Positions 39,001-45,000 of a stretch of 60,905 bases of DNA are shown in pieces (positions within the stretch are counted from its first letter, which is position 1; every line of letters begins with the position of its first letter). Source of the stretch: Candidatus Babelota bacterium (GTDB lineage Bacteria > Babelota > Babeliae > Babelales > Vermiphilaceae); NCBI GenBank assembly GCA_049325595.1, contig JBMOLF010000017.1:1-60905 (forward strand). The letters run 5' to 3'. A program made the position numbers.

Positions 39001-42000
39001 ATGATTTGGCCAACTTTATCATGGCCATACTTTTCACGCACGTAATTTATAACGCGCTCACGACCCTCGATGCAAAAATCGATATCGATATCAGGCATGC
39101 TGATACGTTCAGGATTTAAAAAGCGCTCAAAGAGCAAATTATATTTTATTGGATCAACATCGGTGATTTGTAATGCCCATGCAACGAGTGATCCAGCAGC
39201 AGATCCTCTGCCCGGTCCTACTGGAATTTTATTGCGTTTAGACCATTGAATAAAATCACTTACCACTAAAAAATAACCGATGAATCCCATTTTGGTAATA
39301 AGATCAACCTCAATGGTAAGGCGCTGCAAATATTCATCTTTTTTTTCAACGGGAATGCGTTCTTGGGCAACTAACTCATCAAATCCTTGACGACAAATAT
39401 GAGCAAAATAGGTCTCTTGGTTATGTTCAGCAGGAAGCTGAAATTGAGGGAAAAATAATTTACCGGTTTGAAAATCGAATGTGCATCGGTCAGCAATAGC
39501 TCCCGTATTCCATACGGCATCAGGATGGTCTTTGAAGATAGTAAGCATTTCATCTTGGGTTCGCATATGCACACGACACTCACCAAATGTGTAGCGATCA
39601 GGATTGCTCATTTTATCATGTGTTTGAATTGCAAGCATAATTTCATGTGCTTCATGGTCGTGGGGAGAAACGTAATGGCAATCACCCGTAGCAACTAAGG
39701 GAACTCCTTTGCGAGCTGCCCAATCATATAATTTTTTATTTAAAATCGCTTGTTCTTTTTGATCTTCTGGTTGTACTTCTAGATAAAAACGTTCTTCGCC
39801 AAAAGTGTGTAAAAACCAATCAATACGTTTTTCAGCTTCTACTTCATTGTTGTTCATTAATAATGAAGGAATGTGGCCACCAAGACATGCTGAAGTTGCA
39901 ATAAGACCTTGTGAATATTCTTTAAGCACAGCGTAATCGATACGCGGTTTAAAATAAAAACCTTTTTGATATGAAAATGAGATCAACTTACACAAGTTGC
40001 GGTAGCCAATTTCATTTTCTACCATTAACAACAAGTGATAATATTTTTTTTCCGCTGATTTAATAGAAACATCTTCAGTGAGATATGCTTCCATGCCAAG
40101 CACCGGTTTAATACCAGCTTTTTTACTTTTTTGAAAAAATTTTACCGCACCAAAAATATTACCATGATCACTGATAGCAAGAGATTTCATCTGATGAGTT
40201 TTGCCAAATTCGACCAAACGATCAATTGAAATTGCGCCATCAAGCAATGAAAAATCGGTATGTAAATGTAAGTGCGTAAAATGTTTAGACATTGTCCGGG
40301 TGTCCTGGGATTGATTTTTAGCAGGGTAAAAGTATTTAGTTAGTTTACTATTTTTATAAAAATAATATATATGATCAATAAACAAAAAAATCAAAAAAAA
40401 CGCCAAGAAATGGCGCTCTTTTTTTAATTTTATATTTTTTAGTAACTATACAACAAATAGAGATTGCCTACTGCTCCATATTCTTCTTTTACGCTATCAA
40501 GAGCTTGGTTGATAGTAATAGAACAATTTTTGAGTGGAATTAATTGTTTTAGAGTTAATTTTCTTCCGTATGACAAATCTGCCATCAAGGTGATATAAGA
40601 TTCGATAAAATCTATCTGAGAAGGGCTTGATACAAGCCAATTAAAAGAGACAATACCACTATTGTAATCATATATAATTTTATCTTTTAACGGTAAATTA
40701 GAAATATACTGGCTCAATGCTGCACTGAGCAACACCTCTTCCCAACGACTGCGTGCGTTGCCAACAAATTGAACTGACAAATAACATTCGTTAGATTGGG
40801 TATCAAGTATAATTTGCATAGTTGAACTGTGATTGCGCAAAGGCATATTGTACATAATTTCAATTGTTTGTTGGCTGAATCGTAATCCGATTCGTTTTGG
40901 TTGTAAGCGATGTCCAATCAATCCATGAGCATTGGGTGCAAAACTCGAGCTTTCAATTTTTTCTATTAATTTTTTTGCTACAAGAGGAAGGGTAAGAATG
41001 TGCTCGAGTGATTGTTCTTTTAATGTTTCATTAAATAAGGCAGCAATAACAGTAAGTGAGTTTTGATGAACTAACATAAAAATATCTTCAAGGGTTACTG
41101 GGTAATGTCTTTCAAATGCAGTAGCGCTGCCAAGCACTGCTGCTTGTACGGCAAATGTTGAAGATTTTTTAAACTCTGTATCAAAAGCAGGTTTACCTTC
41201 TTTTCTGTCTATAAAATATTTAATCTTGCTTACATAGTAAGCTAGTGACCATTCACGATGATATGTAATTGAATCATAAGCCATTAGCTGTTGAGACCAA
41301 CAAGCAAATAAATCAAAAAAACGTTTTATCATGTGTTGCATGTGTCTGTATTTGATCTCCTGGTCAAACATATTTGATGCTTTAACCATCTTGATAGATG
41401 CATCAATTGTATCAACAGCGGTGCGCATAATCTCGCATGCAACTCGTTTTTGAAAAAGAGATGCCGTTTTATAATGAATTATAAATGAGTTTTTCTGCAA
41501 ATTGCTGGTAAGGTACGTAATAACTTTATCTAATTTTTTCCAACTTGATGCATATGAACTTGGTGAATTAAATTGTTGTAGTGCGGCATTAATTTTTTTT
41601 AGTTGTTGATGTATATCATTCAAGTTAGCTATGAATAATTGTTTTTCAAATAATGTATTATCATGAGCAGTTATAGATGATAAGGAAATTACCATACATA
41701 GGATTATAGATTTAATTTTTAACATGGCGTATTCCTGTATGGTTTTCGCAATAAATTTTCAAGAATATCTTCTAATTTTGTAGATTTTTTTTTATTTATT
41801 GGATTATTCATAATGGGATAGAATTCTGAGCTGAACCATAATGTTAAGCAATTCATAGAATGATACAATGCTAATGTTTCTTGTAGTTCTTTGGTAAGAG
41901 CTTTTAATTTTGTCTCAGTTGTCTTATGAGGATCATAATTAAGCCAAAAATTATTTAGATGATCAAGATTAATAATAAAAGCGATCCATTGTTGTGCTAT

Positions 42001-45000
42001 TTCTTGATTGGGAGCATATTTTGCATACAATAATTCTTGCGATAATAAAGGAGTTCTACCAAGTTTTTGAGCTGCAACAACTATTATTTGTTTAAAATAG
42101 AGCGTGTCTAAAAAACTGTGATAATTTAAACCACCTATAAAATATTCTGTCTCGCTTGGATTTTGCTTAATTAAGGTTTCAATTAATTTTATATAAAAGA
42201 GCCAATGAAATTCAGAATAACTATTCTTATCAAGAAGCATATGTGCTTCTTGAGTAATTGAAGAAAAAATAGATTTGAAATTGGTCAAAGCTTCTTGCAG
42301 TTGCACATCAAAATTATTTTTCCATACATTTGCTATGCGTCGTTCGCTTAATCCAATTATAGTATCAACGTAAGCGCTCAATTGGTTTAGTGTTTTTTTG
42401 CGATCTTTTTTTGTTTCGTTGCTACGTAATTGGTTCAGATAATTATCGAGTAGTTGATTGCTAGGTATAACTTGTTTTAGTGGTTGAGAATAATTTGCAA
42501 TTGTTATACGTGGATTGATGGGGTGTTCACACCAGTCACTACATAGATAATTATTAACCAGCTTTTGTGGTGCTATTATGGCAAGCGATTGCTGGGTGTC
42601 GATATACAATGGATTATCTTCTGATAGTTGTGAGAGTAATTGTTTTATTCGAGTTAAATTCTGACTATAAAAACAAGGTATGCCATGTCCCATAAAATTT
42701 ACTGCAGCATGAGATAATGGTGATGCCCATGTTCTGACTATTACGGCTTTTACTAAACTACTGCGCGGGTCTTGATCGGCATCATCTAATGTATGGGCAA
42801 TTAAAATTTCTTCAGGATTGGTAATGGTAATTACACTCAGATTACTTGGTACAAGACGTTCTAAATCTGTTTTTATAAAATTTTTAGGTTTATTTTTTTC
42901 AATTCCCTCTATGTCAAGATATGAAGCAGCAATAGATTTGCCCATTGCAGGACGTGCTTGGACAATGTATATCTTATTTTCTTTTACGACAAATTCGACA
43001 TCCATGGGTGATTGATAATGATTTTCAATATGCTTTAATGCGTTATAGAGCTGTTGCAATTGATCATTAGTAAGTGCGCATTGTGCGCATAAGTTTAAAG
43101 GATTTTCTATTAATTCAAGTTCAATGTTTTGGTTATCATGGTTAACGGGTATAAGTCGTTCTTCTTTGCTATAAATTTGAGGAATTATTAAAGGTGAATT
43201 TTGTGGATTCAATGAAGGTACTATATAATAACGATCGGTAAGAACTTTGTTAGAAACAATTCCTTCGCCATGTCCATAAGCAACGTTTATTTCAGTTATT
43301 TTTAAATGAGAATCACTTAACTGCTTATTGGTGGTGTAAGCAACACCAGAAACAGGAATTTTAGTTAAATCAGTTTCTTTACTATTAAGGGGCTCACCAA
43401 CTAACTCTTGCACTAAGACTGGCATAAAAATTTGAGTATCTAATACTTGACCATTTGCAAGACGATTTTTTAATGAATGAAGAGTTACATACGAAGCAAT
43501 AACTTCTCCCATTGCTTTTTGCAATTCAATAGCTTCTTCAGGTTCAGGTTGAATGTAGGCTTTACTTACATTGGCACCTGCGTTAGCAAATGCGACGCTA
43601 TCTTCAATACCCGTACTTCTTACCATAAGGTAATGGCCTTCTTGAGCTAGTCGTGCAATAAACTTTTTTTCAGTATCAGTAAATTTAAATGGATATTTTC
43701 CATCCCAGGCATGTTCAAAGATAAAACGGATGCGATGACCAACTTCTTCTAAATCTTGCGCTATAGAAATATCTTGAAGACCATCTATGCCTAGTTTATT
43801 AAGTCTATTAATTACCGATGTATATAACGCAAAAGGATTATAGTTGGTAAATTGACCGTCACCAAGACAATTTTTTTCTAAAAACTCTTTAATGCGATGA
43901 CTTTCAATACCAAAAAATTCTGGTACGCAAATATTGGGAATTTCTTTTAAAACTTTTTGAAGAATAACTAAATTCTTATGTTTATTGCCACAGGGCCAAC
44001 TGTCTTGAGAAGCACTAATGGTAAGTGGTATAAGTGACAAAAGAGAAAAGTACTGCACAAAAGTGCGTAAAAACTGGTGCATAATTCCTCCATTTGTAGC
44101 TACTTTATGCGGAGTAACTGATGATTTTAGAGTAATGAATATGCCATAAAAGTCAATTGAAGTGGTTGACATCAGCTTTGATGTTTTCTATCTGAAATTA
44201 TATTGCAGTGAAAAAGGATATTTTTGCTGAGATTATCACAAGAAATTCTACAAGAATTCTTACGATGATTAATTATGCCAAGCTACTTAGTTTAACAGTT
44301 AAACTATATTTTGGTTTTGCTCACGGGCTTTTTCTAATTCCACTTTTACGTTAATTGCATGGGTGCTAATGGTAGAATCGGAGCATTTTGCGGTAATAGT
44401 ATTTATTTCGCGACCAAGTTCTTGCAAAATAAAATCTACCCGTTTGCCTTTTTCTATGCCCGGAGTAGTAAGCTCCATAGTGAGATTTTTTAAATGATTT
44501 TTAAAACGAATAATCTCTTCATGGATGTCGATTTTATCAAGCATTACATACAAGGCACTTTTGTGTGTTTCGGCAAATTTGCTATCGTCCATTTCAAGTT
44601 CTTGTAGTGCCGCATCAACTTTTTTCTTTTGGACAACAATCATTTCTTCGGCAGCTTTTTCTATGATGGCAATTTCTTTTTCGATAATGCCAATGCGGGT
44701 AAGAAGATCATTTTTGAGTACTTCACCCTCGCCAGATTGCATGGTAATGAGCTGGTCAATAAGCTCATTGGTTGTAGTAAAAATAAGGTTTTTTGCATCA
44801 CTTGAAAGCTCTTCTTCTTGAACAGTAAATATATTAGGTAATAAAAGTAAATTGCTCAGAGAAACTGAACCTTCTATCGAGAAATTTTCTTTAATTTGTT
44901 CAAGTGCATGCAAATAACCAGCAATAGTAGGCAATGAAGGCTCTACTTTGCTTTTAAAAGCATTAGCTGTTGTTAAGTGTATAGTAAAGGAAATATGTCC

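Follow-up and report, generated by a model that had tools for sequence, protein, structure and literature searches.

A predicted two-chain swivel dikinase with export-type signals, from a family shared by three lineages of intracellular bacteria

Introduction

What does a PEP-synthase-like dikinase do when it has lost the pyruvate-binding barrel and is encoded by two genes, each with a predicted signal peptide? The question is raised by genes g01183 and g01182 of a Candidatus Babelota bacterium, in a window that comprises the whole stretch of DNA analysed (60,905 nucleotides of contig JBMOLF010000017.1). An earlier note had described a swivel-histidine dikinase with a non-barrel acceptor module, in two signal-peptide genes; the domains, the residues and the collinearity with fused relatives all bear this out. 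On sequence grounds, the best explanation as a whole is that the pair would be an exported split dikinase acting on a host molecule, to which we assign a probability of roughly 0.55.

Bacterial effector kinases known so far mostly have protein-kinase-like folds and, to our knowledge, characterised swivel dikinases act within their own cell or organelle. A large dikinase family in intracellular bacteria has apparently gone undescribed: our literature search found no paper on this dikinase family (supplements may list such proteins), and PMC11077975 gave 0 matches to the search terms.

Genes and start sites

The two ORFs share an overlap of 7 nt on the (-) strand. The gene-level features of the window are:

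41719..44172, (-): longest ORF of g01183, 817 aa from the first Met
41719..44082, (-): g01183 from its true start (P0001), 787 aa, with signal peptide, ATP-grasp, His swivel and helical region
44087..44091, (-): Shine-Dalgarno sequence motif GGAGG upstream of the second Met of g01183
40439..41725, (-): g01182 (P0002), 428 aa, C-terminal acceptor module with its own signal peptide
41719..41736, (-): fission junction, with AGGA ribosome site, g01182 start and g01183 stop in the 7-nt overlap
28587..30968, (+): ordinary cytoplasmic PEP synthase PpsA, a control outside the g01183/g01182 system

The second Met of g01183 (44082) had been proposed as the true start, and it is preceded by GGAGG at 4 nt, while no GGAGG-type motif was found upstream of the first Met; homologs start level with the second Met in the alignment. 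Only the numbering needs correction: the 817-aa call numbers this Met 31, not 30, and the swivel Ser-His pair, present as reported, is S457-H458 when counted from it, not S458-H459. The contig of a separate study carries one inserted base at 44124, within the extra 30 codons of g01183, consistent with the second Met as the start. The separate normal PpsA that had been mentioned was also found.

ATP-grasp and swivel

Four features of g01183 concern its catalytic part and the region that follows:

42940..43989, (-): PEP-synthase-type ATP-grasp, residues 32-381; K34, R155, E160, D161, D361, E363, Q375 and R377 conserved
42568..42870, (-): swivel domain with the phospho-His, its approximate borders at residues 405 and 505
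42709..42711, (-): His458, predicted phosphate carrier, invariant in 192/192 near-full-length members
41743..42525, (-): region in place of the pyruvate barrel, about residues 520-780; few invariant residues, helical according to an earlier model

The PPDK_N domain claimed for g01183 is matched in Pfam over residues 32-381 (E 1.7e-32), and the R-S-x-G-x-E-D motif falls on R155-S156-x-G158-x-E160-D161. A 414-column alignment pairs ATP-grasp and swivel with the PpsA of the same genome at a probability of 99.4%; the swivel His residues and the catalytic residues fall in the same columns. Among solved structures, the best sequence matches are the PEP synthases 2OLS and 8A8E (E 2.6e-29 and 2.6e-26). 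Swivel-dikinase chemistry, in which ATP would yield AMP and phosphate by way of a phospho-His, is highly likely from these alignments.

The rest of the chain departs from PEP synthase. The whole-protein PEP synthase cut-offs of NCBIfam are missed (81.9 versus 598 and 81.5 versus 739.75 bits), Pfam gives no match to PEP-utilizers_C, the pyruvate barrel (PF02896), in g01183 or g01182, and none of any kind at about residues 520-780 of g01183. PEP-utilizers is found at residues 423-471 with E 0.079, under the Pfam cut-off. By motif comparison the swivel lacks the glycine-rich loop upstream of its His, a loop described as conserved in dikinase swivels in the sections of PMC12167813 consulted. The absent loop and the low swivel score count against the best explanation.

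The acceptor module

The second gene has two parts:

41027..41659, (-): helical part of g01182, residues 23-233; D108, K112, H220 and Q221 invariant, E213 and D214 near-invariant
40574..41002, (-): alpha/beta subdomain of g01182, residues 242-384, with a MotA-CTD/YjbR/secretion-chaperone-like fold; N293, H299, S300, G322 and R327

Fused relatives run to about 1,150-2,600 aa and g01182 corresponds to their C-terminal third, as the note had held; it aligns with 24 close fused relatives at 30-37%. Among 192 near-full-length members, D108, K112, H220 and Q221 are conserved in 192/192, H299 in 190 and R327 in 186, which is the level of the ATP-site residues and the swivel His. Since the first four are as invariant as that His, g01182 quite probably carries the acceptor site.

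The g01182 model (pLDDT 89.8) has helical bundles as its best matches, as had been seen before (best Z here 8.9). For the alpha/beta subdomain the best fold match is the C-terminal domain of T4 MotA (Z 8.5, rmsd 3.0, 107 aligned, 8% identity), with type III secretion chaperones and YjbR at Z 6.0-6.5; as modelled, this is a common fold that says nothing on function. No Pfam family matches g01182 at E<=1, no NCBIfam family matches the C-module, and no Pfam family is common to at least two of 63 C-module members. The C-module profile finds nothing below E 0.058 among PDB sequences, and Foldseek with the g01182 and alpha/beta subdomain models finds nothing at E<=0.001 in the PDB, nor does Foldseek against viral structures. 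Two candidates were set aside: PI3-kinase, whose place in the top Foldseek rows is noise (TM 0.14-0.16, rmsd about 20), and peptidase M16, whose Atlas feature matches (0.85) share few features and are under the bar. Co-variation (MI-APC, 192 rows) holds clade signal only.

One enzyme in two chains

Most family members are fused, and g01183 followed by g01182 is collinear with them. The same split is present in five protein clusters with 46-96% identity to the window proteins, including the cultured Noda2021, and also in a complete PacBio genome. The halves are adjacent in the window and in Noda2021 (L052), as they are in L051, which is cut elsewhere; a second clade is split at another point. 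At the break, g01182 has acquired a ribosome site and a signal peptide along with some 30 further residues, and a 368-base contig from another study spans the junction with no gaps. An assembly error does not account for the split, since it recurs in the five clusters and the second clade is cut elsewhere.

Frameshifted-looking relatives do exist (e.g. L065, L067, L120, L121), as would be expected if decay or misassembly had left halves that no longer work together. That reading is largely refuted and we find it hardly credible, given the recurrence of the split, PacBio genome included, the gap-free junction contig, the gains at the break and the integrity of every key residue. In all likelihood, judging from the sequences, the two chains would pair into one enzyme. 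The split itself is a side feature, with fission at at least two different points.

Family and neighbourhood

The main point is how widely the family occurs among intracellular bacteria, in three lineages. The 49 homologs first reported were a large underestimate, as was the range of 7 of 41 genomes with taxonomy for two homologs: the family has 984 clusters at 50% identity, and matches were found in 45 of 261 genomes of Babelota, 45 of 300 of Chlamydiota (G520 not scored) and 7 of 251 of Rickettsiales, with up to 7 matches per genome and a patchy presence within bacterial families. No member was found in 400 other Pseudomonadota genomes, which gave four noise matches (E 0.018-0.042). Diverged free-living relatives can be missed by these counts, because the profile was built from loci of the same lineages and the all-GTDB scan relied on one motif. 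A genome-wide locus scan with a single protein as query gave no match; viral contigs held no relative, and plasmids none beyond the ATP-grasp.

Neighbour clustering over the set of 46 loci (5/46 without placement) found no gene family common to more than two of them, which argues against a pathway operon. HEAT-type repeats were seen in 6/26 long members and ankyrin in 1/26, mostly under cut-off.

These results bear on whether the pair could be an exported metabolic enzyme that phosphorylates a small host metabolite (sugar, nucleoside or cofactor precursor) for import by the parasite. RPH, HpeHI, CreHI and phenylphosphate synthase use small molecules, according to parts of PMC4844700 and PMC12167813; a single invariant residue set across three phyla fits one simple substrate; and the genome, which encodes nucleotide (TLC) transporters besides its PpsA, relies on host metabolites. 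We nevertheless consider this unlikely: a metabolite kinase has no need of so many matches per genome, of extensions hundreds of residues long or of HEAT and ankyrin repeats, no transporter gene is linked, and presence within families is patchy.

Export and the host side

Signal peptides were called with an in-house hydrophobicity rule rather than a trained predictor:

44011..44082, (-): Sec-type signal peptide of g01183, about residues 1-24, predicted by this crude rule
41666..41725, (-): signal peptide of g01182, about residues 1-20, predicted likewise; absent at this place in fused relatives

Both proteins pass, in agreement with the note, but so do 522 of the 809 ORFs of at least 200 aa in the genome, so a signal peptide alone says little here. 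In Chromulinavorax the figure is 44%, from the part of PMC6561590 consulted. Under the same rule a signal peptide is found in 9/9 Babelota, 4/16 Chlamydiota and 0/3 alphaproteobacterial loci, and 9/16 Chlamydiota members have N-terminal extensions of >100 aa. Three observations count against the best explanation: Sec reaches the periplasm only, signal peptides are commonplace in this genome, and rickettsial members have no export signal under the crude rule.

Among secretion genes, GspE scores above its cut-off and a GspC/D/L/M/D-like cluster under it, and no type III export gate was found in the genome (G000, 95% complete). Sequence matches thus point to an export signal and a matching secretion system for a host-directed effector. 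Action on the host side is reasonably likely.

The periplasm is normally without ATP. This weighs against an enzyme confined to the periplasm or cell surface, where it would modify the envelope of the bacterium itself, as do the 12/16 chlamydial and 3/3 alphaproteobacterial members lacking a signal peptide under the crude rule and the lack of recurring envelope-synthesis neighbours. Such a role would suit a Sec signal, which proves inner-membrane transit only, in a diderm organism (Omp85 is present), and two chains meet most easily in the periplasm after export; on balance we think it improbable.

PEP synthases catalyse a reversible reaction. An energy enzyme could be imagined that burns host ATP to AMP as a signal, with water as acceptor, or that runs in reverse and uses a host phosphoryl donor to turn AMP and phosphate into ATP. 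Parts of PMC13553574 describe GWD as able to transfer phosphate to water, and Noda2021, which grows inside Vermamoeba (PMC8812299), and Chromulinavorax (PMC6561590) are located among reshaped mitochondria. This reading is very improbable in our view: destroying host ATP brings an ATP-importing parasite little gain, a hydrolase would need fewer invariant acceptor-side residues, and nothing indicates a phosphoryl donor.

Proposed mechanism and significance

Under our preferred reading of an exported enzyme acting on the host, g01183 and g01182 would together form a single swivel-histidine dikinase, whose two chains would each pass the inner membrane by Sec and then pair. Type II secretion would probably carry the paired chains out of the bacterium and into the host cell or vacuole. 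The ATP-grasp would cleave ATP to AMP and phosphate and load the beta-phosphate on His458; the swivel would dock on g01182, where Asp108/Lys112, His220/Gln221, His299 and Arg327 may hold the acceptor, and the phosphate would be handed to one conserved host-derived acceptor. This would most likely be a hydroxyl on a host protein or on a lipid or glycan head group, rather than a free metabolite; host macromolecule or membrane as the acceptor class is a guess, at somewhat less than even odds.

More tentatively still, Babelota, environmental Chlamydiota and some Rickettsiales might share a novel effector-kinase class: a PEP-synthase-derived, ATP-to-AMP phospho-His swivel enzyme delivered into eukaryotic hosts, whose acceptor module would phosphorylate a conserved host protein or membrane component, and which some lineages would export as two chains that reassemble. 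About 1,000 diverse members, a predicted invariant second active site and three intracellular lineages point to an unrecognised route to host cells, and the family may represent new dikinase chemistry. Cultured Noda2021 in Vermamoeba has the same split pair and makes it experimentally accessible, and the repeated fission, together with the further signal peptide acquired, illustrates cleanly how an enzyme can be remodelled for predicted export.

Comparison with known dikinases

A dikinase-type architecture with a non-barrel module stands, while the earlier note's 'new architecture' is perhaps too strong, given that the acceptor domain has a weak structural counterpart among uncharacterised sulfate-reducer dikinases of Thermodesulfobacteriota. 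These are PPDK_N plus PEP-utilizers proteins of about 850 aa (an ESM Atlas cluster of 51 members, to which both Atlas searches appear to point), which we take to have a non-barrel domain after the swivel and similar His and Gly/Arg motifs; the TM values of 0.31 over 183 residues and 0.47 over 160 residues are both <0.5, with poor Atlas models (pLDDT 0.45 and 0.48).

PpsA has the same order of ATP-grasp and His swivel, with aligned catalytic residues. The g01183/g01182 enzyme differs in having a helical plus alpha/beta acceptor module instead of the pyruvate-binding barrel (acceptor-module profile against the PpsA barrel, probability 0.3%), and in being split in two, with signal peptides.

GWD1 is likewise a swivel dikinase, one that handles a macromolecular substrate via a helical domain. 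According to PMC13553574 it carries CBM45 modules, its central domain is all-helical and its ATP-grasp is C-terminal, behind the His domain, whereas the ATP-grasp of g01183 is N-terminal, Pfam finds no CBM domain in g01183, g01182 or long members, and the g01182 model contains a beta-sheet subdomain. That all dikinases in the cited papers act on small molecules or glucans counts against the best explanation. Wide fold searches of the two models rank other folds first, with RPH and GWD not among the best 50 matches listed for either.

RPH and PigC/RedH (5FBS, 5HV1) are homologous in the ATP-grasp (profile probability 100%) and in the swivel (57%, E 1e-4), and the RPH-type acceptor domain is likewise non-barrel and mostly helical. 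It gives 0.1% against our acceptor module in hhalign, no higher than the reversed controls (0.2-0.3%; ATP-grasp control 100%), with a profile of 8 sequences, small enough for a remote homology to be missed. RPH is cytoplasmic and has its swivel last (PMC4844700, in part), whereas g01183 and g01182 have predicted signal peptides and the swivel, at about 405-505, lies ahead of the acceptor module.

HpeHI, CreHI and the phenylphosphate synthase PpsAB are also swivel dikinases of two gene products, cut between the ATP-grasp and a swivel-plus-substrate domain as described in parts of PMC12167813. In contrast, g01183 keeps ATP-grasp and swivel on one chain; the cut falls after the swivel, inside the acceptor region, and both halves have predicted signal peptides.

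Gene pair and neighboring genes

The features discussed are:
41719..44082 (-): g01183, 787 aa from its true start, ATP-grasp and swivel half with His458
40439..41725 (-): g01182, 428 aa, C-terminal acceptor module (C-module)
28587..30968 (+): PpsA, the ordinary PEP synthase
47099-50520: ORFs in a row, all signal-peptide-like; one encodes an endonuclease/exonuclease/phosphatase (E 1.6e-17), the other three have no Pfam match
50456-51814 (-): candidate second secreted kinase, 452 aa, signal-peptide-like at its start; Pfam matches to kinase-like families are weak (ABC1, E 0.001; choline kinase, E 0.0035)

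Both ORFs of the split pair described in an earlier note are present in the window sequence. The second Met of g01183, proposed there as the true start, lies at 44082 and is residue 31 of the gene call rather than 30; it is the real start because GGAGG stands before it, homologs' N-termini coincide with it, and a contig from another study has a 1-base insertion within the extra codons ahead of it. PPDK_N spans residues 32-381 (Pfam, E 1.7e-32) and a sub-threshold swivel match lies at 423-471; Pfam gives no barrel match in g01183, in line with the pyruvate barrel's reported absence, and no match at all in g01182. A profile from 87 family members aligned with this genome's PpsA over 414 columns (99.4% probability), placing His458 on the PpsA carrier His.

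Gene fission

As the earlier note had it, g01182 corresponds to the C-terminal part of fused homologs: its residues 27-398 align with 771-1138 of the fused protein P0011 (37%, E 3e-74), while g01183 residues 18-762 align with 16-751. Relative to P0011 the break point has gained approximately 30 residues, including a signal-peptide-like stretch. The split is real. Its junction is crossed, with 11 substitutions and no gaps, by a 368-base contig from X3, the one of four sequencing runs that covers it. The same split occurs in five protein clusters; gene adjacency was seen in the window and in Candidatus Dependentiae strain Noda2021, and we infer it for the three further clusters from equally long contigs. 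Set beside this recurrence, decay is a very improbable explanation of the split.

In a second split clade the break falls approximately 95 profile positions earlier; at one such locus (L051) the two genes are adjacent, the second carrying a signal peptide and a ribosome site of its own. The two split groups form separate clades among fused forms (SH-aLRT 100 and 99; quick tree of 40 N-terminal halves), and since their break points differ, two separate fissions are the simplest reading. A possible third is seen at locus L032 (G097:C8) and in protein P0076, where a 628-aa C-half has a signal-peptide-like start at profile position ~681. At six other loci (L065, L067, L093, L120, L121, L130) family genes lie in two frames, the second piece lacking a signal peptide; frameshifts, errors or decay are candidate causes.

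Acceptor module

Conservation was assessed in 192 near-full-length members, selected among all the proteins and locus ORFs gathered according to how much of the profile they cover. Invariant in all 192 are the swivel His and the equivalents of g01182 D108, K112, H220 and Q221; H299 (190), E213 (187), G322 (187), R327 (186), D214 (184) and N293 (182) are nearly so. These C-module residues are as conserved as ATP-site residues E363, Q375 and R377 (192/192), which speaks for a second active site that is functional and uses one chemistry in the different phyla.

The g01182 model (pLDDT 89.8) pairs a bundle of helices with an alpha/beta subdomain. When residues 180-400 were folded separately (pLDDT 91.3), their best match was T4 MotA-CTD (Z 8.5, rmsd 3.0, 107 aligned), followed by secretion chaperones and YjbR (Z ~6); the predicted MotA-CTD-like fold is a common one and points to no substrate.

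Distribution

At E<=0.001 the C-module profile has 984 matches among 1.84 billion representatives clustered at 50% identity, 899 of them reaching 1e-10; the best 150 of the 984 were viewed. Scanning 185,579 GTDB genomes with one motif turned up 46 loci, grouped by us as 11 Babelota, 27 Chlamydiota, 3 Rickettsiales or other Alphaproteobacteria and 5 unplaced. In profile searches the family was present in 45/261 genomes of Babelota (three weak, E >9e-5), 45/300 of Chlamydiota and 7/251 of Rickettsiales, a single genome having seven matches at most; another 400 Pseudomonadota genomes had none apart from four short matches at E 0.018-0.042; these counts describe range and are no statistical test, because the profile was built from those same three lineages and related genomes are not independent. 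Fused forms make up most of the family, often extended by hundreds of residues; among 26 long members scanned, six had HEAT-type matches and one ankyrin, mostly below cut-off. One 1,296-aa protein (P0053) matches the family only in ATP-grasp and swivel (profile 131-511), and is perhaps the same head with a different acceptor domain. A chlamydial genome carries a tandem pair of members (L071:1-6726). No neighbor family recurs at more than two of the 46 loci.

Export and organism

This Babelota (Dependentiae) bacterium has a genome of 1.29 Mb, 95% complete, of which the window is an entire contig. For both genes the closest named relative is Noda2021 (55% and 46% identity), which grows inside the amoeba Vermamoeba vermiformis (PMC8812299). 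The genome encodes TLC nucleotide transporters, Omp85, a GspE that clears the NCBIfam cut-off and a GspC/D/L/M/D-like cluster that does not; together with this kinship, these genes lead us to infer an intracellular parasite of protists. In the type II secretion-like cluster (L167:4519-12746, on contig C9 of this genome) two GspD-like secretins flank GspL/PilM- and GspM-like genes; GspE is encoded elsewhere, on C7. A type III export gate was looked for in this 95% complete genome and not found.

Signal peptides were called by a crude hydrophobicity rule, passed by 77/122 full-length members vs 238/2440 internal windows. At 29 of the 46 loci the contig includes the start of the gene; of these, the rule is passed by 9/9 in Babelota, 4/16 in Chlamydiota, 0/3 in Alphaproteobacteria and 0/1 unplaced; 9/16 chlamydial loci have N-terminal extensions >100 aa, which could carry putative type III signals. 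The signal peptides of the split pair must not be over-read, because 522/809 ORFs (>=200 aa) of this genome also pass (roughly a tenth falsely, by the internal-window control), and signal peptides mark 44% of the proteins of Chromulinavorax (PMC6561590).

Proposed function and comparison with known dikinases

In rifampin phosphotransferase (RPH; PMC4844700), HpeHI (PMC12167813) and glucan, water dikinase (GWD; PMC13553574), a swivel His shuttles phosphate between two distant sites while ATP becomes AMP. By analogy we propose that both chains are exported, that g01182 and the end of g01183 would then together form the acceptor site, and that His458 would carry phosphate to it from the ATP site, converting ATP to AMP. 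In RPH the second transfer relies on two residues of a single helix, the acid Glu667 and the lysine Lys670 (PMC4844700); purely by analogy, D108 and K112 may take their role. Action on the host is favored (probability roughly 0.55) by the range of lineages, the copy number, the variability of the extensions, the differences between N-termini and the lack of an operon, a macromolecule or membrane being the best guess at the acceptor. The leading alternative, a metabolite kinase, is unlikely, an envelope enzyme is more so, and an energy enzyme is improbable.

By profile comparison the C-module resembles neither the PpsA barrel (0.3%) nor the middle domains of eight RPH-type proteins (0.1%, against 100% for the ATP-grasp control and 0.2-0.3% for reversed controls). 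The literature searched, mostly non-subscription and without supplements, yielded no account of this family: a search of a rickettsial effector survey (PMC11077975) for six terms gave no mention, and a giant-gene preprint names PPDK_N in a legend only.

Atlas searches gave matches under our bar, to poor models: a Thermodesulfobacteriota PPDK_N plus PEP-utilizers cluster (850 aa, 51 members) was matched weakly by g01182 (TM 0.31) and by residues 250-480 of another protein, P0066 (TM 0.47), and g01182 also returned two PEP-utilizer-named clusters (341 and 411 aa). We take the swivel of these ~850-aa Thermodesulfobacteriota proteins to be followed by a domain other than a barrel. Should the acceptor module indeed be akin to theirs, the architecture would be older than this family, whose novelty would then be its export and its adaptation to the host.
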